Position numbers and translations under genes: made by a program
NCBI GenBank assembly: GCA_036172245.1
Contig: JAYWIR010000169.1
Location: forward strand, 1 to 47,437
Length of the DNA: 47,437 nucleotides
Origin: Raillietiella orientalis
Lineage: Eukaryota
Direction: 5' to 3'
Notes under the pieces: model-generated
The model's input: the letters and a program-made list of their open reading frames with translations, nothing else
Databases searched by the model: none
What the model was told of the DNA's origin: nothing
In this document: positions 5,974-47,437 of the stretch, piece by piece
How positions within the stretch are numbered: position 1 is the first letter of the stretch
Layout of the letters: each line of letters starts with the position of its first letter

Positions 5974-7170
5974 AACGATAACGCTGCATTCTTTAATCTG
6001 CTCTCTTGCCTGCTGTTTTTTCTGGCGGTACGCGAGCTTTTTCTCCATCCTCCTCTCCTTCTTTGATTTTTCGGCCGTAGCCACCTGCCATCCAGGCTCC
6101 TGGCTAGTTCCTTCGACTGGTTCGGCGTTGTTTGCCGGGGTCTCGGGTGCGGCCTGGGCCTTGGGCGCGGGTGGCACAGCCTTCGCGGCAGCTTTCGCCG
6201 CCAGCTTTTTCTGCAGCAGCCGGGCGCGTTTTTGAAGGTTTCTCTTGGAAACCACCCGCACTGCTGCTTTTGGGCACACCTCCTTCGTGTGACCCATTGT
6301 GCCGCATACTTGGCACTGCACGTTGGGACACCACGTTTCGAGGTGGCCCGAAGTATCGCAGAAACCGCAGTATTTTTGCTTCCCCACATACCAAAGGTCG
6401 ACGGTTTCGCCTTCGACCACCAGTTTTTGTGGAAGGGTGCAGCCCTCCCGAACGGTCACGCGCGCAGCCGTGAGGCCGTGTTGCAGCTCCGTGTAGTCCT
6501 CGAAAGGACTAACTTTCGTCCACTGCGCGTGGACCGTTCAAAATTGTTCCAGAGCGGCGGGAACCTGTTCTTTGCGCATTCGCGCGGTTACGCCTAACAG
6601 GTGGACCACCATGCTGCGGTCCGCCGTAGTGGGGAGGAGCCTGCGCGTCCCCATCACAACGGGGTTATTAAGCATTCGTTGCGCCAGCTCTGCTTGTTTG
6701 CAGATGACCTCAACGTACTGACCCCCGCTGCGGATGTTCATAGCGCTGAACTCTTCCTCTTTCACATCGAGAGCGCGCATGCGCTTCGAAAAGGCGCGCG
6801 CGCTCTCTAAAGAATATAAATTGTCTACCTTGTAGAACAATGAGGGGTTGTACCACTCCTCTACATAGGCCGACAGTTCCGCCGCGGCTGCAGGCAATGG
6901 CGCCGACACAACGGCGCTCCACTCCCGCGCTGCAGAGGAGACCGATTCTGTGCTGGCGCATGCTTCCACCTTCATCGCCTCTCGGGGCGACGTTGCCGCC
7001 GCCCCCTGGCTCTCCATCGCCACTGGGGGCGGCGTTGCCGCTGCCCCCTGGCCATCCCTGGTGGTCGCGTCAGTCATCGCTGCCTTATCGACCAGCGAAC
7101 CACACGACGCTAGCACGAGGGGAGACTTCCTGGCACGAGGAGCACCGAGAAAACACGTCCGCCTTCGAGC
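5974..7170 (-). mobile_element. L1/Tx1-clade retrotransposon, copy B (5' end and ORF1 only)
   Basis: 5' motif GGCGGACGTGTTTTCTCGG (rc ~7146-7163). ORF1 pieces 6538-7116 and 5974-6459 carry CGFCDTSGHLETWC and CQVCGTMGHTKEVC. Closely similar to copy J. Confidence 0.9.
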
Positions 7171-9313
7171 GCATAAAGCGTTCGACTGCGTAATCCAGAG
7201 GCTGCTCTTGGAGCTTATGGAACGCCTTGGATTCCCGGCGCAACTTCTGCTTTACTTGCGCGATTGATGGCGCCACGCGCTAACCAGCATTACTTCCAGC
7301 GGCTGCCGCGTGTACGGTATTCCCGTTCGTAGGGGCATCCGGCAAGGTGATAGCCTAAGCGAATTTCTCTTCAGCGTCTACTTTGTGTTGATGCTGAGAG
7401 CTAACAGTGAAACTTTGGCAACCCTGCCGAACTCGTTTCCCTGCACGCCTATCATGTCGGCGTATGCCGACGACCTGCTGCTGCTGTTCACCGGGTCCAC
7501 CCCTGCATCGGCGCTCGAGGATTTCTTGGAGTCGCTGCGCCGCGGGACAGGACTCTAAGTGAACAGGACGAAGTCGTTGATGATATTCTCGGACTCGGCG
7601 CGGATAGGATGGTCTCACTGGATCCGCTTGGTGATCCTTACTGGCGTGTACTGCAAGTACCTTGGCGTTCTGTTTGGGGAGTTCTGCGACGGAGAAGCCT
7701 GGTCCGACCGTCTCCAAAAGGTGGAGTTGCCGAGCTGCCCATTTCAGGACTTGCAGGAACGGGCTGCGCTGTGGAACGCTTTCGCGGCTTCTCTTCTTGG
7801 CTCCCTTCTTTTTGTGTGCCCACCCCCTCCTCAAATAAGGACACGGATAAGAGTGCTCATAAGGAAAACTTTTTGGAGCAATTGGATGTCCTGCGTCAGG
7901 CTTGAAGACTTGTGCTCTCCACACAGGGACGATGGACTTGGTCTCCTGACATTGGGGCTTTGGGAGCGACAGCTCCAATTCAGAAAACTTGCCCTTGTGG
8001 CAAAGTGCTAGATAGCACGCTGGTGTGCGCGTACAAGACTCCTCGCCCACAGGGCAACCAGCTGCTACGGATTGACCTCAATCCTAGTAGTCAACGAACG
8101 TAGTTTGAACCATTGTGGGTTTCAGCTGCGGGACTTGATTGTCCTGTTGAGAGACAATCCATGGATCTCCTGCATCCCCGCGGAATGGACTACCTGGTTC
8201 CATGTGTCCATTTCCGCATGGGCTAAAATCAAAGCTTCCAGCGATGTGGACTTCTCCTGCCTCCGTCGAGGCCGGTACGCTGGCCAGCCACTGGAGGAGA
8301 TCGTTTCGAACCCACAAAAACTTGTGTGGGCTTCCTTCACCCCCCTTGCCCCTGTGCTGCCCTCCCTCTGAGAAGCCAGGGACAAGAGGAGGCATCGTGG
8401 GAAGTGTGCTGCCTCATCAGAGGCAGGAAAAAACTGATGAAGGCGTGTTCGTCCCGGGAATTACTGGACGCTACGACACCGAGTGTTCCGCCTAATGGAA
8501 TTGTGCGCCGGGCGAGCTGCTGGGTATGCCTCCGAGAGAGTTGAAGTGGGCATCAGCGTCCTGGGACAACAGCACCCCCCTGCAGTGGCGGGAGACAGCG
8601 TTGCTTCTGCTTCATTGGGGACTTTTAAGCAGAGCACGCCTTTCTCACTGGACCTCAGGGAGAGTGGGTGCCAATTGCACAGAGTGAGGGGAAAGGGAGA
8701 CCTTCTTCCACTTAATCATCGAGTGTGTTGCCCTCCACCAGATTTAGTATCGACTCTGGTCGATCCTGAACATTCCGGTTGGCGACCTAAAAAACATTTT
8801 TAGACTCCTCCTGTTACAAAACGCCATGCCAGCCCACGAGTGTGTAGCAGTGCTCTGTTGCATACGCGGAATTTTGGACAAGTGGACCACAACCAGGAGA
8901 TGACAAAGAAGTTGGAATGCCATCCATTGGGCAGTAATCTCCATGGAGAAGGCTTCCCGTTGGCGCCGGCTAAGTTCTTCCTGCACTTGTTTGCATCCGG
9001 AACCAGATGCAGAGGCCTATCCACGACGAACCGTGATCCCTTCCCTTCCCTCCCCTCTCCATAAACATTGTCCTCCAAGCGTTTTTACTTTTTTTTGTTT
9101 TTTTTTTTCTTTTTCCGTCTCCTTTGTCAGTGGAGAAGGCCTTACCGGCATACAAGTCGGAAAGAACAAGTGCATAAGATAAGAAAATAAGAAGGATGTG
9201 CTCTGACAGGAACACAAATACAATTAATTAAAAATTGACAGCAATTAATAATTGTAAAAATGCTTTTTAATAATAAAAGTCCCGGCTTACCCGGGTGAAA
9301 AACCCGGGTGAAA
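7171..9313 (+). mobile_element. L1/Tx1-clade retrotransposon, copy C (from RT HKAFD to 3' end; decayed)
   Basis: Begins GCATAAAGCGTTCGAC (HKAFD), then GIRQGD, YADD, KYLG. 3' end AATAAAagtCCCGGcttacCCGGGTGAAA (9272-9300), with the terminal CCGGGTGAAA repeated. Same family as copy G. Confidence 0.9.
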
Positions 9314-9390
9314 GAAAAAGAGCCACGTGCGCCGCGAGGAACGCGACCGGCTCTGAGGTACTTAGCGAACCAAAAAAAAAAGAAAAAAGA
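9314..9390 (+). mobile_element. 3' tail of a SINE (same family as 12877-13657)
   Basis: AAAAGAGCCA..GCGACC(G/A)GCTCTGAGGTACTTAGCGAACC plus an A-tract, matching 13581-13657. Confidence 0.85.
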
Positions 9391-12300
9391 AGAACCCAAG
9401 GATTTCCTTCGTCCTAGGCCAATAGTAACGATCTCCTCGTGGGGGTTGCTACTGACCTTAAAAAAAAAAAAAATGTAAGTAAAAAATGAATTCTAATTTT
9501 AAAACTCTAATAAATTTATAATTGTAATCCAATATTTACTTGTTCATGCAATATATGCATATAGTATATACAGATATATACAAGAATGTATATTTATTTT
9601 CATGATCTTCGATTCATGTACATGAATAATAAAAATGATGCTGATACATGTTATTAATTACATCAAAAAATATATGTCAATAAATATTAATAAGGGCACG
9701 TGCTGAAATAAAATTCTACAGTAATCGGTACACGAATATGTATAATAGACGTGCATACTTGCTTTTTTATGATCTTTCGGAATCTCGAACCACATTCGAG
9801 CCAGTCAGACATTGCGATTTCCTGTTTCGCATCCCACGGACTGTAACATCAACGACTCAATGCCCTCAGGGAACGGTGAGCGGCATGTGCAAATTTCCAT
9901 CGCTTCTTTCGTGGCCATGGCCGCTGATACTTCCTTTCGATACATCTGTGTTGTATGGGAGTTACTGAACTTCGAAGAATGAGCTTGGAAGCTGGAGAAC
10001 GATACTCCCAAAGTCTTTAATGTGACCCTCCACCTAAGATTGCTCTCTTTTGATTCTTAACTTTTTCTGGCACATCAAACACGTCTGGAAGTGCCATCCA
10101 ACAAGTTTATGTGCGATTGCCACTGGCTCAATCAAGAGATGTTCGAGTATATTTCTGTTTTCACTAGGATGAAGAACTGTGTCCCTGATAGCTTGAAAAA
10201 CAACTATGGGTGGTAAGCAACCAAGAAATAGTCTTGGTAACCAAGTATATTTCTTTCCGACGTGACTAAGGCAGTTATTTCCCCATACGAAAGTCTGCTT
10301 TCCATTAATTTGTGCAAAAACACCTATTACTGCAACAGTCCCCATGTTGACGATCAGTTCTTTACTGGTATTTCTATTAATTAAGGAATAATTTCACCCA
10401 GGTTCCAGGACATTTATTTAAAAAACAAATCTCAAGTTATAAGCGATCAGTGTCCCTAGATTACAAAAGATGCCTTCCCAAAAAAGCTCATTGGAGATGA
10501 CCACCCGCACGCAAGTCGGATTTTAGGAAAGTTAAAAATGGGAAGAAGGAAACAATAAATACATCAAAAGAAGAAGGAAAAAAAAAAGACGGGAGTGTAG
10601 GAGCAAGGGTCATTGGTTTCATTCGTTGTTTTCTTTCTGAAAGCCGCCGTGTGTGGTGATGATCTCACTGAGGACATCTTCAAGTCGAGATTAGGGGAGG
10701 AAAATCCACAGACTCAATTTAGAGAGAAGCTCTGTTTCGTGAAAGGAAAAAACTAGTGAGTGTTCTGACCACCCTTACTGAGCAATGAATCATCTAGCCG
10801 CACGGTTCCTGAGCTTTTAAAGAAGGAATGCCAAGCCGAGGATCGCGTCATCTCGCACTTACTGCTGGCACCAAAGGCAAAAGGATCAATGGTTGCAAGC
10901 AGCTCACTATTCTGAGGAAGAATCGATGGAAACTTCTAAAACGGTAGTGATTACTTTTCGACGGCAGTCAAGTGGCTGTAGAACTCGGAAGCCACTGAGG
11001 GGTGTGTAACGAGTCGCCTGACTAACAACTGGCCATGGTAATGGATGGTGCTCAAGCATCAAGCAGACAACCAACTACTGGAACAGAACTGTTCCTACCT
11101 CCTAGCATTCTCGCTGCGGAGAACGGCGGACTCCTCGGACACAGGAAGGCAGGCAGGCCGCGATGGTTTGCTCAGAGAAGGCCGTGGGCACCAAATCACC
11201 TAAAGCCGTCGTCTGTGCAGATCCTGCCAGTGCTAGCGTAATCCTCTAGTGATGATCCTGGAAGGATGATCTGGGGATCTGGTGACATCTCGTGGAACTG
11301 TCCCCACGCGAAAGACCCCCGTGCCTAGTTTCCTTGGATCCCAAAGCTCCTCTTTCAGTATACCCAGTTAGACTATGAAGCACCGCTTCAGTGCCCCGAT
11401 TCTGATTCGAAAACGCAGGCATATGGAATAAAGGCAAAACTGAAATCACCAAAACAGCAATCAGCATTATTTGGAATAAGTTTTTGTTGTTATGGACATC
11501 ATAAATAGTGCTAAAAATAAGAATTTAAGGGAAGTAATTCAAGTTCATATGAACATCGGTCACCTTAGTAACATTCTGGAACAACAGAGATCGATTAAAT
11601 ATTTTACATGAAAATCTAATTCCTGACTGCAAGAAATACGACAGCAAACAATTGACTGAGAGTGGAAGATTTCAAGAAAGTGGCGAAAACTCGAATGGCA
11701 ATGAAAATACAGACGATGAGCTTTTCTGGTGGAAGTGCAGGCCTAAAAGATAATTAGAAAAAACAAACATCTGGTGTATGTCTTCTGCAGAAATGGAGTG
11801 CTGAGGTATTGGCTTTTCTCATCGTAATCAGTGAAGTTAGCAACTTGTGAATTCTTCACAGTGACCCTGAAAATTCGATTTCCATTTGTTAAAATGCCTA
11901 CTTGCTAGTTGCCTTCCCTGTACGGGCACTTTTATGCATCTGTCTTCATTGTCTTTGAAGCTCTGGTCAACAGACTACTCTCCTTCTCGATCTGGAATCT
12001 GATGAGGAAACCAATAAGCAATTAAGCTCCAAATAGTGGAGGTGTTGTAAGGGAGGCAACATCTAGATAAGGTATTTCTTGACTGATTCAATGGGAAACA
12101 GCAGCAGGGAGAGTTACTCAATCGCTTTTATCATTTTCTTGTTCAGCGTTTGCACTAGCTTCTGTATTTTCAACTCGAAAGAAGGAGGTACAAAACTTAC
12201 TTTTGCCAAAAGCATTCCTGCAGAGAAGCACCTGATCGCTGCTACCTTGAAGTGCGCGCCAATTCCTACCCGCAGATTTCGGCTGCACTTCCGGGATGGT

Positions 12301-12876: not shown

Positions 12877-13657
12877 CGCTGCCCGCGTCGGAGGCCTAGT
12901 GGTTAAGGCTTCCGCGCGTGGCACCATGCGTCGCGGGTTCGAATACACCAGCAGAAACTGACGCCACTGAGTCGTTGGGTTCCGAGTTTCTCCTGCAACG
13001 GAGAGCGGACCCCCGTCACCGGGGGACAGCCTCCGGTTTCAAGATGGAGCAGGAGTTCTCACGGGCACCTCTCCAGCTGTTCAAAGGAGCGGACCCCCTG
13101 TTGAGGGGTCCCTCCGAGTCGTTGCCTCTTCATAGAGTGTGTACAAGGAAGCAAGCGAGAGCGATTCCCTGCGCCCCTTCTGATTCTCGGAAGCGTCCCT
13201 TCGGGGTTCTCTTCAGAGGAGTGATCAGGAGCGGTTCCCTTGCGGGTTTCCTCAGGAGAAGAAATTCCTGCTAGCGGATCCTTTCCGGGTTCCCTTGGGA
13301 GAAGTTGAAATGGAGAGGACCACTCCCCATTATGGGGGGTGTCCCTCAGGAGAGAATGAGGAAGGAGATTCCCTTCGGAGACAACCAAGGTGGGAGGTGC
13401 GATCCCCCCTGTCCGGGGGGATCCCTCCCCAAGTGTGAGAAGAACGGACTCCGAGCCCTTCCTGGATTCATAGGACGGATTCCCATTCCAAGGTGTCCCC
13501 TATCCTGAAGAATTACACTCCTTCCTGCGGGTTGCTGCGGGCGGAGGGGCGTGGAAACAAAACAGTGTGTTTGATGTTTAAAAAGAGCCAAGTGCGCCTC
13601 AAGGCACGCGACCAGCTCTGAGGTACTTAGCGAACCAAAAAAGAAAAAAAAAAAAAA
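12877..13657 (+). mobile_element. tRNA-derived SINE (~780 bp)
   Basis: tRNA-like head with box A (AGGCCTAGTGG, 12892-12902) and box B (GGTTCGAATAC, 12936-12946). GC-rich hairpin body and poly(A) tail. Second tail copy at 9314-9390. Possible short TSD AAGGT (12872-12876 / 13656-13660). Confidence 0.82.
12892..12946 (+). promoter_or_regulatory. RNA polymerase III type-2 internal promoter (box A/box B) of the SINE
   Basis: Matches to TRGCNNAGTGG and GGTTCGANNC consensus at tRNA-like spacing. Confidence 0.75.
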
Positions 13658-24346: not shown

Positions 24347-24789
24347 CAACGCTCAGAAGTGCGTTGTCTTCTGCAGCCACCGAGGAACTCCGAATTCCAT
24401 GACAAATTTGAACTTTTCAAAGTTCACTTCGCACCTGTCTAGTCGCTACCCAGATTTTATCCTGCTCACATGTAAAACATTGCAAATAAGGGATACTCAC
24501 TTTTTTTTTTTTTTTTTTTAATAAAAGGCAGTAGCTCTGACGTTGGCGCTGAACAAAATGGCGGGAATCAGTTCTCCTTCTCCGTGATAGACCAGGCAGT
24601 CAGGTGGCGGCGGATATTTCCGGTAGTAAAGAGCACACTTTTCCATGGAGAACACCCGCCAAGGTCGGCACATGCAGTTGGAGTGTTTCTCCTTTTTTTT
24701 TTTTCTTCCGAAAAAACAAACAACCAAAGGAAAGAGAGGCTCAGAGAAGTCACAATGCTTATTTCTCCCCTTTTTTAAAGAAAAAAAAA

Positions 24790-25025: not shown

Positions 25026-25029
25026 CCAC

Positions 25030-31014: not shown

Positions 31015-32180
31015 TGGAGTCTACTCTTCATATGGCCAACTGCATCCCCAAAGACACTCCGGCAGAAAAGCTGCGCAATTGCTTTCTAGGGTATAAGCCT
31101 GCGCCAGCCCTGCAAGTCGGAACGTGAGTCTCAGAAGCCGAAGAGACCCATATAACATCGGTGCGAGGGGGATAAACCGGTACTTAAGCAGAAGGAGGGC
31201 AGCGTGGAAACCCAGGATGGGAATCTGTCACGCCCGGATATCGCATTGTAGTTAACCCCCATGGAGGAGGGTCAGCAGCTGGTTGACGCACCGGCACTTC
31301 CGTTTATCAGTCGACCTCAAGAAAGGAGGGTGAACCGATACGAGAAGCGCCTCCCTTTCCCAGCGTCTCGCCTTATTCCTCCAGCCGCTAAAAGGGAAAA
31401 GGCGAAACGAGTGGAGAAATCCAAAGCGAAGGATAATAAAACTGGCCAGCCGAAGCAGCCAGCGAACGAAACTTCTTAACAGACGTCAGAGAAGAATCAT
31501 TCCAAAGACGTGGAAGAAGAGGGCTGGCAGCTTGTGAAGACCAAGAATGAAAAAAAAAATAGAATTTGAAAATGAGACGGAAAAAACTGCGGATTCGGAG
31601 AAGGCGTGGCCAGCAGCACAGTTTTTCTGCAGATTCGCATGTTTTCCAGACGCACTAAGGTTGAGCTTCTCGCTGAGAAAAATCAGAGGGCCAAGTGCCA
31701 GGTCTGGCAGTGCGGAGCAGCTTGCCTGCTGGACGACAAGGGCCAGGAATGCTCGGCCCCAGCCGAAGTACGCCGCATTGTGAGACGCTACTGCTCCTCC
31801 CTGTACGCGAAAGCCTCAAAGGACGACATTCTCTCGGAGATACTCCTGTCGCGAAAGGCGGAGACTCGCGCCAACTAAACAACTGGCGACCGATCACCTT
31901 GGTGAACTCGGTCGTCAAGTTGTTTTCCAAGCTGTGGGTCACGCGGCTAGGAAGTATCGCGGAATCTGTGGTGAGCCCGGAACAAACCTACGCGGTTCTT
32001 GGACGATCCATAGAGACGAACATCCTTTTCGTGAGTACCTGGATGCAGCTGCAGGAAGTCGTAGCGCGGAAAAGCCTGGCTGCAGCGAACGTCGCAGCTG
32101 CAGGCAAGAACAGGCGCCGACGGCAGGAGGAAACGCCAGGTGCCTTCGCGGTCGCACTAGACCTCCACAAGGCGTTCGAT
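31015..32180 (+). mobile_element. L1/Tx1-clade retrotransposon, copy H (ORF1 remnant joined to post-APE linker and RT N-terminus, ending at HKAFD)
   Basis: ORF1-like EEEGWQLVKTK (~31515), then GFGEGV..FLQIRMFSRR..LLDDKGQEC, NNWRPITLVN and AVALDLHKAFD ending at 32180. Left boundary is uncertain. Confidence 0.82.
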
Positions 32181-34288: not shown

Positions 34289-36169
34289 GCTCTAGGGCGG
34301 ACGTGTTTTCTCGGTGCTCCTCGTGCCAGGAAGTCTCCCCCAGTTCAAGCGTCGTGTGGTTCGGTGGTCGATCAGGCAGCGATGCCTGACGCGACCACCA
34401 GGGATGGCCAGGGGGCGGCGGCAACGTCGCCCCCAGAGGTGATGGAGGTGGGGGCATCCGCCCCCGCAGAATCGGTTCCCGCTGCAGCGCGGGCGTGGAG
34501 CGCCGTTGTGTCGGCGCCATCGCCTGCAGCCGCGGCGGAATTGTCGGCCTATGTGGAGGAGGGGTACAACCCCTCATTGTTCTACAAGGTAGGCAATTTA
34601 TATTCTTTAGAGAGCGCGCGCGCCTTCTCGAAGGGCATGCGCGCTCTCGATGTGAAAGAGGAGGAGCTTAGCGCTATGACCATCTGCAGCGGGGGTCAGT
34701 ACGTTGAGGTCATCTGCAAGCATGCAGAGCTGGCCCAAAGACTGCTTAAAACACCCGTTGTGATGGGGACGCACAGGCTCCTCCTCACTACGGCGGAATG
34801 CAGCATGGTGGTCCACCTGTTAGACGTAACCGCGCGAATGCGCAAAGAACAGGTTCGCGCCGCTCTGGAACAATTTTGAACGGTCCGCGCGCAGTGGACG
34901 AAAGTAAGTCCTTTCGAGGACTACACGGGCTGCAACACGGCCTCACGGCTGCGCGCGTAAACGTTCGGGAGGGCTGAACTCTTCCCTACAAACTGGTGGT
35001 CGATGGCAAAACCGTCGACATATGGTATGTGGGGAAGCCGAAATATTGTGGCTTTTGCAATACGTCGGGCCACCTCAAAAAGAGGTGTCACAACGTGTAG
35101 TGCCAAGTATGCGGAACCAGGGACATACGAGGAAGGTGTGCCCTTAAGCAGCAGTGTGAGTGGTTTCCAAGAGAAACCTTAAAAAACGCGCCCGGCTGCT
35201 GAAGAAAAGGCTTGCGGCGAAAGCTGCCGCGAAGGCTGTGCTACCCGCGCCCAAGGCCCAGGTCGCACCCGAGACCCCGGAAAACAACGCCGAAAAAGTC
35301 GAGGGATCTGGCCAGGAGCCTGGGTGGCAGGTGTCAATGGCCAAAAAATCAAAGGAGAGAAGGTTGTAGAAAAAAATCGCCTACCAACAAAAGAAGAAAG
35401 AGCAGGGTAGCGCGAAAATTGAAGAGTGCAGCGTCGTCGTCGAACGCGTTCCCGAAGTTGCCGAACGCTGCCAGAAAGAACTCGCTGCTACCGACATCCA
35501 CCCCTCTGTTGACTCTGTCAACAGCGTGGGGAGCGTGCCGGCGGCGATATCCGTCATCGACATCACTATCAATGACAGCCTATGCGCAAACGGCGGCGGA
35601 TCTGGCTGCGTCGCTGCAGCCATCCCCCTCTAAGGCAAGTAAGAAGGCCGCAAGGCGTCCAGCCTCCCCTCAGGAGTCCCCCACTTCCGGCCCCGAGGCG
35701 GAGGCCGGAAGCGCAGCCTCCGTTTTCACGGCGCCCCGCAAGAAGGATGGACGTATGTCAGAAAAGCCGAGGAATATCGTCTTCCCCGTGGAAGGGGAAG
35801 AGATGACATCCGGAAGCGAGAATGCCATCAGCGTGGGAAACTCGCGGGACCCGTCGCCCGAGAGACTTCCACGCTAGGACACGGAGGGGATGGAGGGGTG
35901 GAGGCCAAACACGTGCCTCAGGTGCCTGAGAAGGCCGAAAGCCCCATGGACATCCCGCCCGCCTCGCAAGAGGCGTGCTCCCCCACACCTTTATCTTCCC
36001 AGGAGTAATGTCGGGAATCTCCCGCCATCGTCTGCGCATCGCCGTTTGGAAAGTGAACGGCATGACAGACGGCGGAAGGGGACGAGACATGGGCGCCCTT
36101 CTGGAATCCTTCGACCTTGCGCTGCCTCAGGAGATCCACGTGATCTCTACAGAACAAACGCAAGAGATT
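34289..36169 (+). mobile_element. L1/Tx1-clade retrotransposon, copy J (5' end, ORF1, spacer, APE N-terminus)
   Basis: 5' GCTCTAGGGCGGACGTGTTTTCTCGG. ORF1 is homologous to copy B and ends at 35877. ORF2 starts at ATG 36008 with LRIAVWKVNG..LPQEIH (APE N-terminus). Confidence 0.9.
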
Positions 36170-36657
36170 TCTCACCCGGTCACGACAAGGCGTTTATTTC
36201 ATATAAATTCAACAGAAACAATTATATAAAACAAACCAGTTAAGGACCATGCCTCCAACCGGCGACGGCACAAGTATCAAGAGTACATTGCTGGCACGCA
36301 TGCCAGAATAACACAGAACGGTTTGTGGGAACTGGGAGAACAAACAAACAAAAACAAAAGAGTAAGAAATCAACTGGCGACGCCGGGCAAGGGTCTTTGG
36401 GATCGCTCTGGTTTGCTCCGGGATAACAGTAATGGCACCATCTTTTAGCAGAGCAAGCGGGTAAAAGGTATGAATGGGCTTTAGGACGTCGTGGCCACCG
36501 GATTAAGCCGTTCCTAAAAGTCTGTAAACCGGCGGTGGATGCCGGCGATGTCATCTTTGACCTCGTCACGAAGATGAGACCACCTAGCAGCGCTTTTCAT
36601 GGATTCTGCTGCAAACCGGTGAGCCTCCTTTCGCTGCGCTGACAACTCCAGAGCGTT
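36170..36657 (-). mobile_element. L1/Tx1 3' terminal fragment, copy K
   Basis: Reverse complement encodes NALELS..AARWSHLRDEVKDDIAGIHRRF (compare copy A, GGIHRRF). 3' end rc AATAAACGCCTTGTCGTGACCGGGTGAGA. Confidence 0.85.
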
Positions 36658-37852
36658 TAAGCAGAGCGTGCACTTGACCCGTTCTCAGGAGGCGAGTTCG
36701 TCTTGCCGGAACGGGCCAGCATTCTGGAACACCTTCGTTGCCCATCTCCTCTGCCCCCTGTTTTTTGTTTGTTCACCCCCTCAGGAAGTCAAAGTCTCCG
36801 CGCAGAGCCTTCTACGCAAAGCGTTGTGGGGCGCTGCAACATCCCGTGTTAGACTTAAAGACTTGGTGGCGCCGCGTCAGGATGCAGGCTTGGGCATCCT
36901 CGACTTAAACAGCATCGAACTGCAGGTGCAGTTTCGCATGCTGCGGCTCTGTGCCAAGCTGTGGTGTACGCCGTGGTGCTTACCCGCACGCCTTATACTG
37001 AGGCGCTGCACGGGAAGCGAGGGACTGCTTTCGTTGCTACCCCACTTTCGGCACACCAGAATAGTGTTTGGCTTCCCGCTGAGGCAGCTGTCCTCACTGC
37101 TGGAAGCCCAATGTTGGATCTCCTGCTGCCCCGTGAACATCAATGCATGGCGGGAGGAATTTTTTTCATCGTGGGCAGCTTCCGAAGGAACGCGCTTGGA
37201 AGATCTTAGGAGCCTGCGACTTCTCCTCAGTCATCCAATGGACAAAGTCATGCAGGACAAGAAGAAGTGGGATCCTATGGCCTCTATATTACTCGCCGCA
37301 GCGCTGTCTGCCCTCAGGGCAAGCAACGACAGTTGCCTACCGGCGAATTAAGAGTTCTCCTGCTCAATAGCGAGAGTCAGTAAGCTTCTCGGCTGCTGGA
37401 CGACAAAGGAACTGGTGGAAACTGCCACTTCTCATAATCGGGCGAAGGGCCTGCTTCGGTGGAGTGAACATTTAAGTGTACCCCGCGAAGAGATAGTGGT
37501 CCCCATCGTTTGTTTGAACAGCTCCGTGTTCCCCCTAAAGTGGAAACAAGATGTGCTGCTATTTTTACATTGTGCATTACACTGTAATAGGCAGCGAAGC
37601 ATCGTTTCCGGGGGAGCTGCTTTGCCAAACTGTTTAAGGTGCGGAGAGATCGAATCTTTTCCGCACCTTTTGCTGGACTACGGTGACCTCCGTGAACTGT
37701 GGCGAAGGCTGATTTCAGCCATCCTGCCGCAGGGAGGAACTGCAATGATGTGCTGCGGCGCTTCTTCAGGAGGAATGGATTTTCGGTAGTCGCGATTGTC
37801 GCAACCATGTGTTGCATTCGCTCCATCGTGAAGGCCCGCTACGCCCTGGAGT
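36658..37852 (+). mobile_element. L1/Tx1 ORF2 C-terminal half, copy L (both ends broken)
   Basis: FWNTFVAHLL..LKDLVAPRQDAGLGI, CLRCGEIESFPHLL, ending at IVKARYALE. Confidence 0.88.
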
Positions 37853-40841
37853 TTTCACCCGGTTACGCCGAAGCGTTTATTCCTAAACACTTTGTTTTCG
37901 CGGTACGAGGCCCCGTTACGGCCAATAGTTCTTTGGACCTGCCGGGAAGCCGGCTCGCAGGCCGGCTTGACTCTCCTCGGCAGCGGAGGGGGTAGAGGGT
38001 AAAAACGAAAAGGAAAATAAAAGAAATAAACGAAAAGAAACTATTTGGAGGGCCGGGAAGGGATCACAGCCCGCTGGAGGAAGAGACCATCCTTTCGAGG
38101 ATGCCCTAGAGGTCCCTCTTCATTGTTCCCAGATGGTACCAGCCGATCGCGATTCGCAGGTATCGACCAGCGTGTACGATGGGATCCCTGTTGCTGCTTC
38201 CTCTGTTGGCTGCGCTCCACGCGGCCACAATCCCTCGAAGGCAGCAAAGTGCTGCCAGGGCTGAGGCTGGTGTCAGGGCGTGTCGCACGAAGAGGAGTCT
38301 CATAACGTCTCTGGGGGTGCTGCCTACCGGCATTGAAAGGTTCGTAGCAAAACGTTCCCACAAGGGCCAGAAGGCTGCGCAGTCCACTAACAGATGGGGG
38401 AGGAATTCCTTCTCCCCGCACACTGCACAGTTCTGTTCAACATTCCCCAACGTCCAGTGGTGGCGGCGCGCGTTGCAGGGAAGACCCCAGTGCAACGACA
38501 ACAGCGCCGTTTCCTGCCACTTTAGGGGGAGGATGGATGAATCAATGAACGACGGGGGCCACTCTAGGTCATCCTACGGGATGCCAAGCAGCTCGTCCCA
38601 TCTCCGTAGTCCATGCGGGTGAACTCTTGGGGTCGCGGCGTCAACCAGTTCCCTCATGGTCCACCCAGTCAGATCCTTCTCTTTGCCCGCTATCCGGCAG
38701 GAGACTTGCCATCTCGGCTTCCGAATATTTTGGAGCGTCCTCCGTAGGAAGGGTAGCGCCGTGGCCAGTGGGGTCGTCTCCGCCCATGTGCTTCTGGCGG
38801 GACACACGATCATGTTCCGCAGCGTGCAGCGGGTGTAGATGCCGGTACGCAGGCCGTTGCAGGATTCTTCACTGATATTCTTTATCTTTGCCCACGTTCC
38901 AACTGTTTCTTCCAGCCATGCGCTGGAGTTGGCGGGGCTGCAGGTCATCCACGCGTTCTCCTTTGCCAGGGTGGCCATGAGTCCCAGGAGAAGTCCGCAT
39001 CTTCTTTTTTTCCGGCCGGGGCACAGAAGAAAAGACGCGAGTCCTTCAGTCCCGGACACACGTCTGGCGAGAAGGAGGGCCGTTACGCACCACCGAATGT
39101 TCCACATTTTCGCTGCGATGGCTAGAGTACGCCACCGCAGCTGTGTTTCCATTCTCTCTATCGTCAGTACGCTGAGACCTCCGTCCCGACGTAGAGCGCA
39201 CAAGTCTTTTGAAGGCACACGAGGCATCCCGCCGCCCTACAGGGCGATACGTAGGAGGTCCTTTGTTCTTTTTCTTAATTCACGGGGTACGGGGCAAACA
39301 AAAAGCAGGGGGCGAAGGAGGGGGGCCGCGAACGCGTTCCACACCGCGACCCATTCCGGCAAGTGAAGCTTGCCTTCCAGGAACGGGCCGATCGCTGACT
39401 CCACTTTTTGGAGACGACCTGACCAGGCTTCTGACTGACAGAAGTCCCCTAACGGAATTCCGAAGTACCTTAGGTACCTGCCCGTGTGGATCCCCAGGCC
39501 GATCCAGTCGGACTGCCCCTCCCACGTCGCTCCCACCGGAACAACCATGCTCTTGCTCCTGTTGACGCTCACGCCAGCACCGCGACGGATCAACTCAAAG
39601 AAGTCTTCAAGCGATGTCGCCGGGGTGGACATGGGCAACAGGAGAAGCAGGTCGTCGGCATACGCTGTCACGGCTCGCGTACCTGGGCAGGAGCTCGGCA
39701 GGTTGGCTAGCGTCAGCCTGTAAGCCTCCAGCACCAACTCAAAATAGATGCTGAAGAGCAGCGGGCTTAAGCTATCACCCTGCCTAATTACTCGTCGTAC
39801 CGGCACGCCGTACACGCGACAGCCACTGAAAACAATGGATGTATTCGCGTGGTGCCAGGAGGAGCGCAAGTACGCCAACAGGGATGCCGGAAGACCCAGA
39901 CGTTCCAAAAGCTCAAGAAGAAGCATTTGGTTCACGCAATCGAATGCTTTGTGCAAATCGACTGCAACCGCCAAGGCTCATGGTGTCTCCCTTTGCGTCC
40001 CGCGCCTTCGTCGGTGAGAGATCGAAGGCGTCGCTTCCGCACGACGATCCACCGCCACACGATGCTGCAATTGCAGCCATGTGCGGATGAACAAGAGATT
40101 CGCGTCCCAGGAACAGCGTACGTCTGCTCCGGACTTACCAAGAATTCCGCGATCCTACGCATCCGCGCCACTTAAAGTTTCGAGAACAACTTGACGTCCG
40201 AATTCACTAATGTGATCGGACGCCAGTTGTTCAGTTGGCGCAAATCTCCTCCTTTCGGCAGTAGACGCACCTTCGCTGAGCGAAACGAAGCGGGGACATC
40301 GTCCGAGTCTCGCATCAGCGACGAGAGTTGGAGCACCAGGGGGATGAGCTCCGCCGCAAAACACTGGAAGAATTCCGCAGGGAGCCCATCTTCGCCTGAC
40401 GCTTTTCGTCTCTTGAGCCCCGAGATGGCCGAGGAAATTTCCTCTGTCGTGAAGGGCTCATCAAGACGCGCGCGTTCCTCCTCGTCTACAACAGGTGCAT
40501 CACTCGGCAGAAGCAGCCGGGAGAGGCTGCGTTCCGTCGGTGCCTCTGCATACAGAGAAGAGTAATAGCGCCTGACTATCCGTCGCACATCGGCTGGAGC
40601 CGAGCATTCCCGGTCCTGGTCGTCGAGCAGAACTGTCGCTCCAGACTGCCAGACCTGGCGCTCGGCCTTAACCTTGTACTCGGATAATCGACCAACGTCC
40701 GCACGCCTGGAAAAGGAGCGGGCCTGCAGAAAATCTCTGCTGTTGGATACGCTCTCTCTGAAGCCGTGCGGAAGCTGGTGCAAGGGAAACCGGCAGCAGA
40801 ACTCGCGGACCGATCTTTTCAGATCGTCCCAGTCCTCGAGC
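37853..40841 (-). mobile_element. L1/Tx1-clade retrotransposon, copy F (post-APE linker to 3' end)
   Basis: ORFs 40172-40843, 39237-39974 (DLHKAFD, QGD, YADD), 38574-39227 and 38106-38501 (CAVCGEKEFLPHLLVDC). 3' end rc AATAAACGCTTCGGCGTAACCGGGTGAAA. Confidence 0.92.
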
Positions 40842-43800
40842 AAGAGCGGACGGGTTTTTGTTTCGCTCTTGAGCGTTTGTGGTTTTATGTTTTTCTCTTT
40901 TTTTTCTTGGTGTGCCAGTGGATTCGGTGGTGGCTAGGCAGCAATGCCTGGGACCACCACCAATGTTAAGGAGGGGTGACGTCTATGTCGCCTCCTGAAT
41001 CAATGAATGTGTGGGCAGCCGTCCACAGAGAAGCGACTCCCTCGCTAGGGAGAAGCTGGAGTTCCGTGGCTGCGGCGCCAACGCAAGCGCCTGCGGCTGA
41101 GTTAAAAGCCTACCTGGAGGAGGGATACAATCCCCCTCTACTCTACAAGGTAGGCAACCTTTACTCCTTTGAGAGTGCACGTGCTTTCTGGAAAGCGATG
41201 CACTCCCTCAAAGTACTTCAGGAGGAGCTCTTGGAAATAATCATCAGGAGTGGTGGACAGTACGTTGAGGTGATTTGCAAAAAAGCAGGTCTTGCCCAGC
41301 GTCTGCTCCGTACACCTGTTCCTTTAGGGAATCTCCGGCTCCTCCCCATCACGGAGGATAGATCTATTGTGATCCACCTCCTCGGAATCACCTTCCGGAT
41401 GGCCGAGGAGGCTGTCCGACAGGAACTAGTTAAATTTGGAACTGTCCACGCGTTGTGGAAAAGGCCGACTCCGTTTTGGGAGTACGATTTCCTGAATTGC
41501 GGTATGGCTTCCGCGCGCATCACGGTCCGCGAGGGTTGATCCCTTCCTAACAAGCTGGAGGTCAACGGCGAACCCGTTGACATCTGGTATGTCGGTAAGC
41601 CGCATTTCTGCGGGCATTGCAGCAATTCAGGTCACCTGAAAAAAAGGTGCCCCCACTTGCAGTGCAAGCAATGCAAGCAACCCGGGCACACTCTTCCAGT
41701 GTGCCCGCAAAATGAAGTCCGCGTCGCGTCCGCACTGAATGCGAAGAAGCGCGCGGCGAGAAAACGAAGAGTTCAGCCAGCCCGAGAGAGAGCCGACGTT
41801 TGAAAGACAACAATCATGCCCCAGGTAAAGGTCAGCTTCGAGATCTTGGAAAACTCGGACAAAGTCGAGGAGAACGGCCAGGAACTTGGATGGCAGGAAA
41901 GAGTCAGGATGGGCAACCTGACTTCCGGAATGTCCGCCGCTAGGAAACGGGATGGTTGGGGAGGGGAGGGAGTCCTCGCAGTCGCAGTCGATTTGCATAA
42001 AGCATTCGACTGTGTCGACCAGAGGCTCCTCCTGGAGCTCCTGGAACGCTTGGGCTTCCCGGTCTCTTTGCTGACCTACCTGCGATCCTGCTGGCGCGAC
42101 GCGCTCATCCAGATCTTTTTCAGTGGACACACCGTGCACGGCGTACCGGTGCGACGCGGCATACGTCAGGGAGACAGCCTGAGTCCCTTGCTCTTCAGTA
42201 CCTACTTCGAGTTGGTACTGAGAGCGTACAGGGGAAATCTGGCGCACCTGCCGCGCGACTATCCCGGTACGCCCGCGGTGTCAGCATATGCGGACGACCT
42301 ACTGCTGCTGCTCCCTACGTCCACCCCGGCATCGGCGGTCGAGGAGTTCTTCGACCGGCAAAGTCGGAAAACCGGGCTTGAGGTGAACAGGGCGAAGTCG
42401 TGCGTCATGCCAATCTGTGCGGCGTGGGCAGGGCAGCCGGACTGGGTCCGTTTGGGGATCCCCACGGTACGGTACTTCAAGTACCTCGGTGTGCCGTTGG
42501 GGGACTACTCCCCTGCGGAAGCGTGGTCCGGCTGCCTTCAAAAAGTAGAGACGGCGATCGGCCCGTTCCAAGGCGGCAGGTTTTTCCTGCCTGAGCGGGC
42601 CGCGGTTTGGAACATGTTCGCGGCTCCTCTCCTCCGATTTCTGCTATTTGATTGTCCCCACACCACAGAGACTAAAAAGCAGACGAAGGACCTCCTAAAG
42701 ATTGCCCTGTGGGGTAATGGGAGGGCCCGAGTCCGGCTTGAGGACTTGAGCGCTCCGCGTCGGGACGGCGGTCTCGGTCTCCTGACGCTAGAGCTGCTGG
42801 AGCTCCAGCTCCACTTTCGGTTACTCGCCCTAGTGGCGAAATATTGGAGTAGCAGTTGGTGCGAGCCCGCACGTCTCTTCGTCGAGCAGGCTACAGGCAA
42901 GCTGGGACTGTCATCCTTCCTTGCGCTCCGTCGGCGCCGCCAAGTCGGTCACTGCGGGTTGAAGCTACGGAGAGTGGCTGACCTGATGAGAAAGAACGCA
43001 GGATTGCTCTGCTGTTGCCCCGTTAACGAACCTGCATGGCTGCAGGAAACGGTTCAAACGTGGGCAAGGAGCAACGAGCAACGCACCCAAGAAGGGCAGA
43101 GACAATTCTTCGCCCGTAATGACCGCCTGACGCTCCGGGAGGTCCTAAAGAACCCCCAAAAACGAGCGTGGGCAAGAAAAACTTCCCTCGTTGCAATGCT
43201 GTTTCCGCTCGCGGAACATTTAAACAGCAACACTGCTGCGAAATGGGATGTTTACATCAAAATCTCCGGTACGGAGAAAAAGATCGGGGAATGGAAAACG
43301 GGAATTCTCTGCGATACCTCGCCCCGGACTACCACCCTTATTAGACTTTTGCGCTAGGGCGAGCTGCTTAATGTTCTGCAAGAACAATTAAAGTGTCTTC
43401 CGGTGCTGATGAACACCTCCATCCTCTCCTCAAAATGGCAGGAGTCAACGCTATTGTTGCTGCATTGGGGACTCCCCTGCAACGCCCGCCGACACCATTG
43501 GACCTGGGCAGCGGTGAGCCCTAATTGTGCGAGGTGTGGAGAATGGGAGTCCCTCACTCACCTCCTTTTGGATTGTGTAGCTCTTCGGCCCCTTTGGAAC
43601 CGTTTTGCCGCGGAAATCGGTAACCTCTGTGGCAACCCCAGAGACGCAATTAGATCCCTGTTCGTTTGCGACGCCCTTCGGCCCTCGACCGCGTTAGCAG
43701 CTCTGTGCTGCTTTCAGGGGATCGCGGCTGCATGGAGCAAAGCAACGGGAGGACGTCGCGATAAGGGTGCCGTCCAGTGCGCAGCCGAATTGATGCGGAC

Positions 43801-44113
43801 GGCGACAGGATGGACCCATCTGGATTCAAACATCCAAAAACAGCTTGCCTGCATCCTGCAAAGGATGTAACGGTTCCACAGCAGACTGTGATCCCTTCTC
43901 GTTTCCCCCAGATCTTGATTTTAAATTTTTTTTTTTTGTTTTATTTTTTGTTTTGTCCTTGGCCCCTCTGCTGTCGTGGTGGACCGTGCCGGAATATGAA
44001 TTTATGACCCGGCAGGCTTAATTTTGTATACCAGTGCGTGGCCAGACCACTGGTCAGCCACCAACGTTGGTTTTATTTTAAAGAATGAACGCCCCGGCGC
44101 AACCAGGTGAAAA
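40842..44113 (+). mobile_element. L1/Tx1-clade retrotransposon, copy E (both termini present; internal deletion of APE and RT N-terminus)
   Basis: 5' GCGGACGGGTTTTT. ORF1 40976-~41900 with CGHCSNSGHLKKRC. Joined in ORF 41816-43357 to AVAVDLHKAFD..YADD. CARCGEWESLTHLLLDC in 43403-43870. 3' AATGAAcgcCCCGGcgcaaCCAGGTGAAA. Confidence 0.92.
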
Positions 44114-44184
44114 TCATAACTCAGCAAGAAACTACTCGCTTTGCCACGCTGGCGGAGCGAAGGAAAAGCACGTCCTCTCTGCAC
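44114..44184 (-). mobile_element. Isolated 5' terminus of an L1/Tx1 copy (O)
   Basis: rc GGACGTGCTTTTCCTTCGCTCCGC matches the copy D 5' end CGGACGTGCTTTTGCGTCGCTCCGC. Confidence 0.7.
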
Positions 44185-44368
44185 AGCGGGGATTCGGGGA
44201 CGGATTCAGGAACGAGCGGTCATACCTTCAGGCCCGCAGTTATTCCAGGCGTCCCGACGTCCGTCGCCTGGCAGAATTCAAGGCTGAGGCGGAGAGGCAG
44301 GCCTGGCAGTCAGGCTCGGACTGCTTGCTGGACCATCAGGGCTAAGAACGCTCCAACCCAGCTCAGGT
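44185..44368 (+). mobile_element. Short ORF2 linker fragment, copy M
   Basis: RGFGDGFRNERSYLQARSYSRRPDVRRLAEFKAEAERQAWQSG..LLDHQG. Confidence 0.85.
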
Positions 44369-46518
44369 TTTTCACGGGGGTAAGCCGGGGCTTCTATTAC
44401 TAAGATTTCGAGATTACAAAATTTTGTAATAAAGTCTTTGTTGTTGAAATTTTTTTTTTTTAGGACGTCAGACGTTTAGTAGAGAAGTACAGTAGCACTT
44501 GTTTTTACCGATCCGGAGGCCGATAAGGTCCTTCACTGGCGCCGGGGAGAGAAAAATAAAAAGAAAACAAAACAAAAAAAGAAAAACGTCTAGAAAACAA
44601 TGTTTTTGGGGAGAAGGAGGGAGGGAGGGGATCACCGTGCGACGTGAGCAGGCCTTTGCATCCGGTCACGGGTGCGAACAAGTGCCGGCAAATTTTTTCG
44701 AAGTCGCCGCCAACGGCACGCTTTCTACAAGGAGATCGCTTCCCAGTGGATAACATTCCGGGTGGTCCTTCCTCTCCTAGACGCGGTCCACTTCTCCAGG
44801 ATACCGCGTATACAGCAGAGCACTGCTACGCTTTCGGAGGCTGGCAAGCCGTCTGGCGTCAGAAAGCGTCTGAATAAATTTTTCGGGTCACCCCCCGGAA
44901 TGTTGAGGATCGACGAGAGTCTGTCCCACATTTCGTGGAGGGCAACACACTTCAGAATCAAGTGGAGGAAATTCTCCCTTTCCCCGCACTCTGCACAACT
45001 AGCATCCACATTCCCCGATGTCCAGCGAGACAGGCGTGCTCTGCTTAGAAGTCCCCAGTGGAGCAGATGCAACGATGTCTCCTGCCACTGCAGAGGAAGA
45101 GTGCCGTTGTCCCATGACGCTGGGGGCCACTTCACCTCCTCCGGAGGTATACCGAGTAGCGCGCCCCAGCGTAAAAGTCCGTTCGGCGGGACACTCGGGG
45201 TACTAGCGTCCTCTAGTTCCCTCGGCGTCCACGCCTTCAGTAATTTCTTCCTGCCTCCGATGAGGCAGGACACTTCTCACGATGCCTGTTGGTTGCTGTC
45301 CCGAACTTCCCTGAGGGAGGGCAGCACTGGGGTAAAGGGGGTGGAGGAAGCCCACAGAAGTTTCCGTGGGTTGGAAACGATCTCCTGGAGTGGCTGACCA
45401 GCGTGCCTCCCTCTGCGGAGGAAGGAGAAGTCCTCATCGCTGGTGCCATTGATCTTCGCCCATGCGGATACGGACTCCTGAAGCCAGGTAGTCCAGTCCG
45501 CTGGGATGCAGGAGATCCAAGGGTTGGCTCTCTTCAGAGCAACCAAGTCCCGCAGCTGATAATCACAATGGTTCAGGCTGCGTTCGTTGGCTACCAGGAT
45601 TGAAGTCAATCCGAAGCAGCCGGTTGCCCTGTGAGCAAGGAGTCTTGCTGGTGCAGACCAGGGTGCTGTCCAAAACTTTGCTACAAGGGCAAGTTTTCAG
45701 AATTGGAGCATTCGCTCCATGCGCTCCAACGTCAGGAGACCAAGTGCACCGTCCCTGCGTAAAGCGCACAAGTCTTTGAGCCAAACGCGGGTCCTCCGGT
45801 TGCCCCAGAGGGCTTTACGTATAAGGCCCCTAGTCCGTGTCTTAATTTGGTAAGGTGTAGGGCACACAAAAAGTAGGGGGCGAAGGAGGGGGACCGCAAA
45901 AGCGTTCCATACCGTGGCCCGTTCCTGCAAGTGGAACTAGCCGTTTCGGAACGGGCCGATCGCCAGCTCCACCTTTTGTAGACGGTCGGACCAGGCTTCT
46001 GCAGAGCAGAAGTCTTCCAACGGAACGCCAAGGTACTTGATGTACCTGCCCGTGGGGATCCCCAAGCGGATCCAGTCCGACCGTCCGGCCCTCGTCGAGT
46101 CGGTGAAAAGCAACGACGATTTCGTCCTGTTTACCTGGAGGCCTGTCCCACGGTATAGCAACTCTAAGAAATCCTCGAGCGCCGATTCCGTGGTGGACCC
46201 GGGAAGCAGGAGCAGAAGATCGTCGTTATAGGCCGACACGGCAAGCGTGCCGAGACACGAGCTCTGCAGGGTTGCCAAAGTCTCCCTGTATGCTCTGTAC
46301 ACCAATTCATTGTAGATGCTGAAGAGGAGGGGGCTGAGGCTGTCAGTCTGTTGGATGCCACGACGAACCGGCACGCCGAACACGTGCCGGCCGCTGAAAT
46401 TGATATTGATGAACGCGAAGCGTTAGCAGCAGCGCAGGTAGGCCAGGAAAACAACCGGAAAACTCAAGCGTTCCAGGAGCTCCAGAAGAAGCTCCTGGTC
46501 GACGCAGTCGACAGCTTT
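44369..46518 (-). mobile_element. L1/Tx1-clade retrotransposon, copy G (KAxD to 3' end)
   Basis: Starts at KAVDCVDQELLL, then GIQQTDSLSPLLF, YNDD, KYLG and CAECGERENFLHLILKC. 3' end rc AATAGAAGCCCCGGCTTACCCCGTGAAA. Confidence 0.9.
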
Positions 46519-47437
46519 TGGCCCAAGGTCTGCTTCAATCCCCCATGGTAATGGGGACACGCAAACTACTTCCTATTACGGCTGACCACAGTATGGAGGT
46601 CCACCTTTTAGGAGTTACCGCGCGGATGCGGAAAGAACAGTTACGCGCCGCGTTGGGAAAAGAAGGCACGGTCCATGCAGTATGGACCAAGCCTAGTCCT
46701 TTCGAGAACTATACCACAGTTCAGTGCGGCTCCACGGCTGCCCGTGTGATCGTTAGGGAGGGCTCTACCCTTCCAAACAAACTGGTGGTCGGCGGAGAAA
46801 GCGTCGACCTCTGGTACGTGGGAAGCCCAAATACTGTGGCTTCTGGAACACGTCGGGACACCTCAAAAGAAGGTGCCCCAACGTACAGTGCGAAGTATGC
46901 GGGACAATGGGCCAAACGAAGGAACTGTCCACAATCCGCTGTGCGCGTGGTTTCCGCTAGGAGCATAAAAAAACGCACGCGGCTGCTACAGAAGAAACTG
47001 GCGGCGGAGGCTGCCGCTAAGCTGTGCCACCCACTCCCGTGGTCCAGGCCTCAGCCGACACCCCGGCAACGAATGCCGAAAAGATTGACAAAAGCGGTCA
47101 GGTGTTGGAATGGCAAGAAGTCACGGCGAAAAAGAAAGAAAAGTCGCAGAAAGAACGACGGATCGAAAAAAAGCTCGCCTACCGAAATAAAAAACAGCAG
47201 GTTAGCGAGAATTAAAAAGAATGCAGCCTCGTCGTGGGACGCGTCCCCGCCGAACGCCGCAAGGTAGAAATCGCTGCTACCGGCGAGCAACCCACTGTTG
47301 AAAATGTCAACAGCGTGGGGAGCGAACCGGCGGAAGCGTCCGTCATCGAGACCATGATCGATGACGCCACCTTCGAGTTTGCGGCGGAGGAGCTGGCTGC
47401 ATCGTTGCAGCCAGCCCCATCCAAGGCCAGTTGGTTG
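46518..47437 (+). mobile_element. 5'-truncated ORF1 fragment, copy N (related to B and J)
   Basis: LAQGLLQSPMVMG..VHLLGVTARMRKEQ..VDLWYVG, with frameshifted knuckles and a basic tail; runs off the window. Confidence 0.88.

Follow-up and report, generated by a model that had tools for sequence, protein, structure and literature searches.

Antisense nesting of LINEs at a reverse transcriptase motif in Raillietiella orientalis suggests a target preference in one LINE lineage

Introduction

Why do retrotransposon copies on one contig of Raillietiella orientalis repeatedly meet at the same few codons of a reverse transcriptase (RT) gene? The DNA that raises this question is a stretch of 47,437 nucleotides (nt) from GenBank assembly GCA_036172245.1 (contig JAYWIR010000169.1, positions 1 to 47,437, forward strand), which is referred to here as the window. 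Diverged copies of one kind of element, a long interspersed nuclear element (LINE), crowd both ends of the window (1-9312 and 31590-47437). Four junctions between these copies all lie within 16 nt of the codons for the RT motif His-Lys-Ala-Phe-Asp (HKAFD), in four different LINE copies and each time in antisense. On balance we favour the view that one lineage of these LINEs, made up of the copies called B, J and N here and probably also I, prefers the HKAFD codons of other LINEs, antisense, as its target.

Results and Discussion

The window elements

The elements share a common layout, which was established by a Pfam scan, a search of the PDB and inspection of the translations. A first open reading frame (ORF1) with a CCHC knuckle is followed by an apurinic-type endonuclease (APE), an RT of the non-LTR type (LTR, long terminal repeat) and a C-terminal Cys/His motif. 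The Pfam family RVT_1 matches the open reading frame (ORF) of copy M with an E-value of 7.6e-18 and copy A2 with an E-value of 3.7e-14. Exo_endo_phos matches residues 283-397 of the ORF in copy A1 with 24.5 bits, which is exactly the curated cut-off; A1 holds the C-terminal half of the APE only, and the N-terminal motif was recognised by eye in J (~36040-36170). A scan of the window for termini found the 5' end GGACGKGYTTTT in five copies and the 3' end AATAAACG..CCGGGTGAAAA in at least seven. Copies A2, H and N are 5'-truncated. By their RT, APE and termini we classify the window elements as APE-type non-LTR retrotransposons, that is, as LINEs.

The placement of these LINEs in the Tx1 clade, put forward in a preliminary description of the window, is putative. 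In a protein search with the M ORF, 14 of 15 database relatives were 24-30% identical and one was 38% identical over 15% of the query; none was named Tx1. The PDB search matched the R2 and L1 ORF2p reverse transcriptases about equally (E-values 2e-13 to 1e-11), so that this search does not separate L1 from R2 for the window RT, and a protein atlas gave generic RT clusters only.

A short inverted repeat (CCCGG..CCGGG, or GCTTCGGC) is kept just 5' of GTGAAAA at the 3' ends of the elements (5945-5974, 9272-9299, 32181-32210, 36171-36198, 37852-37881 and 44084-44113), and is likely to form a terminal stem-loop.

Four junctions at HKAFD

At 7170/7171 the 5' end of B (5975-7170, minus strand) adjoins GCATAAAGCGTTCGAC of C. 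B consists of the 5' untranslated region (5'UTR) and CCHC ORF1, and its 5' end comprises a 10-nt leader followed by GGACGTGTTTTC, which thus lies 10 nt inside the junction. The host C (7171-9312, plus strand) begins at the HKAFD His codon, and its 3' end lies in non-repeat DNA. Read in its own sense, C starts (G)CAT AAA GCG TTC GAC, and ahead of it stands the B 5' end in reverse complement. The junction at 34288/34289 falls on the identical nucleotide. There J, whose 5' part (34289-36170, plus strand) carries a leader as in B, then GGACGTGTTTTC, a decayed ORF1 and the APE N-terminus (LRIAVWKVNG), adjoins the reverse complement of GCACAAGGCATTCGAC in I (32181-34288, minus strand); the sense start of I is (G)CAC AAG GCA TTC GAC, with the reverse complement of the J 5' end before it.

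The host I is itself an insert. It extends from its own HKAFD codons (34288) to its 3' end (32181), and this 3' end lies in the HKAFD codons of H (31590-32180, plus strand), a 5'-truncated LINE that ends exactly after ...CACAAGGCGTTCGAT. At this junction, 32180/32181, the sense end of H reads ...CAC AAG GCG TTC GAT, after which comes the I 3' end in reverse complement (AATAAACGCTTCGGCGAAATCCGGGTGGAA); 3' ends of the I type have the form AATAAACGCTTCGGCG..CCGGGTGRAA. The remaining junction is at 46518/46519, where N (46519-47437, plus strand, passing the window end) adjoins AAAGCTGTCGAC of G (44366-46518, minus strand). G runs from this site, which encodes KAVD in place of KAFD, to its 3' end at 44366, and its sense start, AAA GCT GTC GAC, follows the reverse complement of N. 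This junction lies 3-4 nt downstream of the B/C and J/I junctions. N starts ~440 nt into the B/J sequence and is thus not full length, a point absent from the preliminary description. That description had reported all four junctions in the RT motif and their antisense arrangement; the junctions are present to the base and the arrangement holds at every one of them.

Chance is a poor explanation for such a cluster. In a simulation with breakpoints placed uniformly on a 5.4 kb element, four of 10-14 breakpoints fell within 16 nt with p = 2.8e-5 to 7.5e-5, and three did so with p = 0.003 to 0.009. Eight HKAFD sites can be clearly read in the window. Four of them are interrupted (C, I, G and H) and four are uninterrupted (A1, A2, K and M), including the equivalent CKAFD of A2 (3909-3923) and the intact HKAFD of K (39939-39953) and M (41996-42010).

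Two further observations concern these sites. An old, decayed plus-strand LINE fragment at 30112-30632 seems uninterrupted across its HKAFD region; this ninth copy lies near 30465-30632. The A1 site (1049-1071, minus strand) is otherwise uninterrupted and contains an 8-nt tandem duplication, AAAGCATT AAAGCATT (1053-1068), which shifts the frame; it is perhaps what an abortive integration left behind, or else a plain indel.

Restriction to one lineage

Ten nested events are visible in the window and all ten are antisense (2^-10 if orientation were random). Four are at HKAFD: I into H, seen at its 3' junction, and J into I, B into C and N into G, seen at their 5' junctions. The other six are elsewhere: A2 into B, A1 into A2, E into J, PK into J, M into PK and G into F (these elements are described below). 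As the six events away from HKAFD are also antisense, antisense nesting is general, and targeting of HKAFD is at most specific to one lineage.

Sequence identity groups B, J and N as one lineage (B-J 86.8%, B-N 72%, J-N 73%). The position of I was approached through M, which is the only copy with both halves, ORF1 and RT, visible. The M ORF1 is 55-61% identical to B/J/N, versus 47% to A1, and the M RT, to which I is closer than to any other copy, is 72% identical to I, versus 58% to C/G. Because the M ORF1 is nearer to B/J/N and the M RT is nearer to I, I probably belongs with the B/J/N lineage. If it does, four of the four visible termini of this lineage are at HKAFD, versus none of six for the other lineages (1/210). 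The preliminary description had put forward the motif as the preferred target of the whole family. The part of this that is supported is that inserts of one lineage occupy the hot spot; four events do not show the wider claim, and six other nested events lie elsewhere.

Independence of the events

The close kinship of B and J is not shared by their hosts. Between C and I, identity is 57% overall and 59% in the first 200 nt past the junction, the same as for any between-lineage pair. The flanks of B and J become unrelated exactly at the 5' ends of these two close relatives, which argues that they represent two separate insertions. C and G are closer to each other and are sisters (75% identity). 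C ends in non-repeat DNA at 9312 and G ends in a LINE fragment, F; these different 3' flanks, together with the truncation of N and the shifted junction, indicate that B/C and N/G are separate events. A blastn alignment of B + C with I + J does run collinearly across the junction (5975-9054 with 35440-32379, 69.5%). We attribute this alignment to the general likeness of all RTs, because the C-I identity of 57% equals that of any between-lineage pair. The comparisons thus support at least three independent origins of junctions at the hot spot, and the preliminary description's claim of independence is borne out by the B-J and C-I identities and by the differing 3' flanks of C and G. It had also named a single ancestral duplication as the finding that would count against it; this was looked for, and a composite of that kind was rejected on the same identities and flanks.

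The copies mix lineage divergence and decay, as judged from the differences at the three codon positions: these are 22/18/29% for C-G, a mild enrichment at the third position, and 27/19/40% for I-M, a stronger one. B and J have in common an in-frame TGA in ORF1 (..CAATTTTGAACGGTCC..; 6530-6545 and ~34870-34885), where M has GGA, and the J ORF1 has further stops and frameshifts. This points to a single master lineage for B and J, either defective or trans-mobilised, or else with read-through of the stop.

Proposed integration at the motif

We propose that the lineage would integrate by ordinary target-primed reverse transcription (TPRT) at the ~15 nt that encode H-K-A-F-D in RT motif A, with its own kind included among the hosts. 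A nick in the host sense strand after the Asp codon would prime cDNA synthesis on the 3' end of the insert, as the H/I junction suggests. A second cut, in the other strand at the His codon 14-16 nt off, would take the 5' end of the insert, as in B/C and J/I, or that of a 5'-truncated insert, as in N/G. The expected product is host 5' part-CAYAARGCNTTCGAY-reverse complement of the insert-CAYAARGCNTTCGAY-host 3' part. The stagger of 14-16 nt is the distance between the 3' junction after GAT and the B and J 5' junctions, which lie at (G)CAY, and these positions therefore fit one staggered TPRT cut. We infer that the site is recognised by the endonuclease or by RNA tails derived from the flank, and that a duplication is formed.

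A target-site duplication of ~15 nt had been proposed in the preliminary description. The positions agree with a length of 14-16 nt, but the window holds no copy at HKAFD with both flanks. The sole insertion with both flanks visible is that of M in PK. M is flanked, within the 5'UTR of PK, by an imperfect direct repeat of 12-13 nt, CTC(G)AGCAAGA (40835-40847 and 44122-44133), which is a candidate target-site duplication. The copy on the 3' side of M is ~6-8 nt from the M end and the other is at the right edge of K. From this case the LINE group appears to make duplications of ~12-13 nt.

Inspection by eye of the flanks of six 3' junctions found no common nick motif, so the antisense nesting of all lineages does not come from one common nick site. 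No strand composition bias that would account for the antisense nesting is obvious in the window.

The leaders at the 5' ends of B and J may bear on how the site is found. The two 10-nt leaders are alike at seven of ten positions. The reverse complement of the B/J leader (GCCTTCGAGC) matches the KAFD codons of C and the next base, GCGTTCGACT, at seven of ten positions, and the J leader matches the motif more weakly, at five of eight specified positions. Other 5' ends in the window (A1, M and P) begin at GGACG or a few nt from it. The leader may be a piece of the flank of a master copy that itself sat in an HKAFD site. PMC4494074 describes such a 5' extension for SINEU-2B.

The proposed target is the antisense of a motif that the element itself carries, so that the overhang of the duplication and the RNA of the element would be complementary at HKAFD. 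Such an overhang would favour twin priming, in which the 5' arm of an element is inverted, at HKAFD. A further step can be imagined, although we hold it to be rather unlikely as a whole: a LINE lineage that targets the antisense RT catalytic-motif codons of rival and sister LINEs could have a self-perpetuating specificity. Copies lodged in HKAFD would yield transcripts with short tails copied from the flank, and these would guide the next integration to HKAFD. Twin priming at the element's own HKAFD would come with the system as a side reaction, a competitor would have its RT active site split by each insertion, and the 8-nt duplication of A1 could be the scar of an aborted attempt. The notions of a 'safe site' and of 'inactivating competitors' in the preliminary description are conjecture of this sort.

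The two nests

The order of the elements was worked out by tblastn with the window ORFs, the terminus scan and inspection of the junctions. Neighbouring elements are always on opposite strands. They form two nests that are each only half in view, C>B>A2>A1 and H>I>J>{E, PK>M, G>N}, in which each element holds the next. Unique DNA, AT-rich in the first case, borders the start of H and the end of C, which makes both of them founders.

The left nest is visible in its right half only, since the window starts inside A1. The founder C is interrupted by B at HKAFD. A2 (3525-5974, plus strand) covers a LINE's right-hand part, between the N-terminus of the RT and a 3' end ...AATAAACGTCCCGGCGCAACCGGGTAATAA, and this 3' end is inserted antisense in the ORF1 of B. 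A1 (1-3519, minus strand, passing the window start) has its 5' end, GGACGTGCTTTT at 3508-3519, antisense in A2, ~384 nt upstream of HKAFD. Its ORF (1300-3372) has the CCHC ORF1 fused to the C-terminal half of the APE and the N-terminal part of the RT. At the other edge of the nest, the 3' end of C (9289-9312) shows a tandem repeat of the terminal ACCCGGGTGAA unit and then an A-rich tail.

In the right nest, the 3' end of the minus-strand I lies in the HKAFD codons of H, and the plus-strand J begins at the HKAFD of I and runs on into the start of the APE. The elements that follow J are, in order, E (minus), PK (minus) with M (plus) inside it, F (plus), G (minus) with its 3' end in F, and N (plus). 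E (36171-37851) is made of two pieces. O (36171-36645, minus strand) extends from the C-terminus of the second ORF to the 3' end of E, and J3 (36646-37851, plus strand) is the adjoining upstream part of E, inverted. On A2 these break ends fall on neighbouring bases, ~5648 for the J3 end and ~5649 for the O start. A contig from sequencing run X1 joins O and J3 collinearly (joint 36651/37845). We interpret E as a single element with a 5' inversion of the twin-priming type inside the APE region of J; the signs of an inversion were found for O + J3 only. J3 was also tried as the 3' part of J. This was rejected, as J3 shares 62% identity with I and forms O's inverted arm.

K (37852-40847, minus strand), which has its 3' end at 37852, and P (44116-44185, minus strand), which is the first ~70 nt (GGACGTGCTTTT...) of an element of the A1/K type, appear to be parts of one element, PK, in which ~60 nt of 5'UTR are joined directly to the APE-RT linker. 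The first 24 nt of P match A1 at ~22 positions by eye. PK appears to be a second internal-deletion derivative, after M. M itself (40848-44115, plus strand) is an internally deleted LINE that lies antisense within PK; its 5'UTR and ORF1 continue, in sense, into the RT ~25 nt upstream of HKAFD, with an open frame of 513 amino acids (ORF 41816-43357). The deletion joint of M is a fifth break near HKAFD, but in sense and within one element. The M RT was considered as the missing 3' half of H and rejected: an overlapping 33 nt match at ~23 positions only, and M extends upstream of HKAFD. F (44186-44365, plus strand) is a fragment of the APE-RT linker and is possibly a continuation of J.

Alternative explanations

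Each pair at a 5' junction could in principle be one element. In that case B + C, J + I and N + G would each be the product of twin priming, with the 5' end joined to the element's own RT at HKAFD where the primer for the second strand annealed to the RNA at the motif. The layout of the pairs, a reverse-complemented 5' arm next to a part that runs from the RT to the 3' end, is exactly that of twin priming, and E is a clear case in the right nest with adjacent break ends. J and I are compatible as members of one lineage, and the B-N (72%) and C-G (75%) identities would suit B + C and N + G as related single elements. We nevertheless regard this explanation as improbable. A B-J identity of 86.8% against a C-I identity of 57% would need a recombinant exactly at the motif. 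The M ORF1 is near to B/J/N, yet the M RT is no nearer to C/G (58%) than the A1 RT is (59-62%), which makes C/G unlikely as the RT of B/N; for B/C the comparison of lineages contradicts an inversion. Nor can inversion produce the H/I junction, where a 3' end lies in a host that begins in unique DNA. If inversion recurred at a single motif, the recurrence would in turn call for a constant primer, which is the same as a constant target. Individual cases may still be inversion products, J/I and N/G in particular.

A possible account, which we rank second behind lineage-specific targeting but doubt, dispenses with a site-specific endonuclease. Antisense self-nesting would be general in these LINEs, and pairing or microhomology at the best-conserved nucleotide stretch would fix the junction; the insert RNA or cDNA, or tails copied from the flank of a master, would pair with the host DNA. 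This would suit the ten antisense events, which hold whatever the lineage or position, as well as the lack of a common motif in the six 3'-junction flanks, the likeness of the B/J leader to the KAFD codons of C, and the palindrome TCGA within the motif. It sits badly with the junctions themselves, which are off the microhomology position: the leader-like and the KAFD-like stretches are both kept, 8 nt apart. The J leader matches the motif less well, as given above. Other lineages carry the motif as well, yet none of their six events landed there.

It is very improbable that the junctions are not independent or not real, as a duplicated ancestral composite or as assembly chimeras at a repeated motif. 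The collinear blastn alignment and the similar divergence of B/C and N/G on both sides of the junction (72% and 75%) would be expected of a composite. Sequencing run X1 contained 0.08 of the window words, 364 of its 573 pieces were <90% alike and its contigs were short, so that it neither confirmed nor denied the four junctions. The low C-I identity, the differing 3' flanks of C and G, and N without the 440 nt that are present in B and with its junction shifted all speak against one composite. As to chimeras, the two sides of the junctions share no long word able to mislead an assembler, and three junctions differ in sequence.

Several points weigh against the targeting of HKAFD by one lineage, the explanation that we prefer. 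The events number only four, and a single 47 kb window holds them all. None of its insertions has both HKAFD flanks, and the duplication is pieced together from different events. The 3' junction marks the first nick, and only one of six element-in-element 3' junctions is at HKAFD; the 3' ends of B, J and N are outside the view. The placement of I in the B/J/N lineage is indirect, through M. Twin priming of a single element explains J/I equally well, and J + I as one inverted element in H would leave three targeting events, not four. The right nest unwinds poorly past E: E adjoins PK directly with no J sequence between them, and the 5' part of J does not pass straight into F. Run X1 gives the junctions no read support either way, and an exact-pattern scan of viral contigs for the B/J 5' end and a scan of metagenome contigs with a degenerate junction pattern each gave no matches.

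Other sequences in the window

The window as a whole has a G+C content of ~50%. Its middle (9.3-31.6 kb) is AT-richer and contains exon-like ORFs and a few old LINE fragments. The exon-like ORFs (20059-24521, plus strand), the last of which ends Cys/His-rich and RING-H2-like, suggest that a host gene with introns lies between the nests. A Pfam scan of these ORFs gave no match, nor did a protein search with the ORF at 21672-22274. A 77-nt direct repeat (9315-9391 and 13580-13656, 89.6% identical) is unrelated to the LINEs. A very short minus-strand copy, consisting of a 3' end only (AAATAAATGTCCTGGAACCTGGGTGAA, 10393-10425), lies in AT-rich non-LINE DNA. The old LINE fragments Q3 (minus), Q2 (plus) and Q (minus) at 24805-26042 alternate in strand, by nesting or inversion.

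Relation to known systems

For LINEs that insert at a fixed sequence, the normal targets are host genes in many copies, microsatellites or transposons unrelated to them. Zepp of Chlorella and the Zepp-like clusters of other green algae are LINE copies that pile into each other as nested clusters. The window resembles them in its nested LINE clusters. Unlike Zepp, its nesting is strictly antisense and, for one lineage, confined to a 15-nt coding motif, and the surroundings resemble an intron-bearing gene region, not a telomere or centromere.

Transposable elements (TEs) that prefer other TEs are treated in the review PMC6719617. PMC4494074 lists several Tx1-group LINEs with targets of this kind: Tx1L in the piggyBac-type Tx1D of Xenopus, Tx1-Mar in Mariner-N4_AMi, Tx1-8_Crp and Tx1-4_AMi in LTR retrotransposons and Tx1-9_AMi in Harbinger. 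The same paper calls a LINE sequence-specific when a large share of its copies (>20% of flanks) have the same target on either side; for B/J/N(/I), all four of the visible termini are at HKAFD, counted in the window only, where no copy has both flanks. The window lineage is like these TE-targeting elements in being an APE-type LINE with one short landing site inside another mobile element, a fixed orientation, a duplication of ~12-23 nt (inferred here) and possibly a 5' extension from the flank of a master. It differs from them in that its target would be the antisense RT catalytic-motif codons of related LINEs, its own kind included. In the full-text literature, Repbase reports, most subscription journals and the supplements of PMC4494074 excepted, we came across no LINE described as targeting the RT motif of LINEs. 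Sequence-specific LINEs that target TEs are thus known, and an RT-motif target in related LINEs is probably a new variant.

Inversion of the 5' end by twin priming is known for L1 (PMC2837659). As in L1, the 5' arm and the 3' arm lie head-to-head, and O + J3 is the clear case in the window. The HKAFD junctions are unlike L1 inversions, the points of which are scattered: the arms are of different lineages (B vs C), H/I is a 3' junction, and the break recurs at one motif.

If the preference of this lineage for HKAFD is real, its target would be renewed by every burst of LINEs, and each hit would disable a competitor. The target would also be hard to mutate away, because the host element needs the motif. 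The system would then be a clear case of conflict between transposons, and it would give a natural explanation for strictly alternating nested LINE arrays. An endonuclease or an RNA-guided step that reads a 15-nt site would be relevant to programmable insertion.

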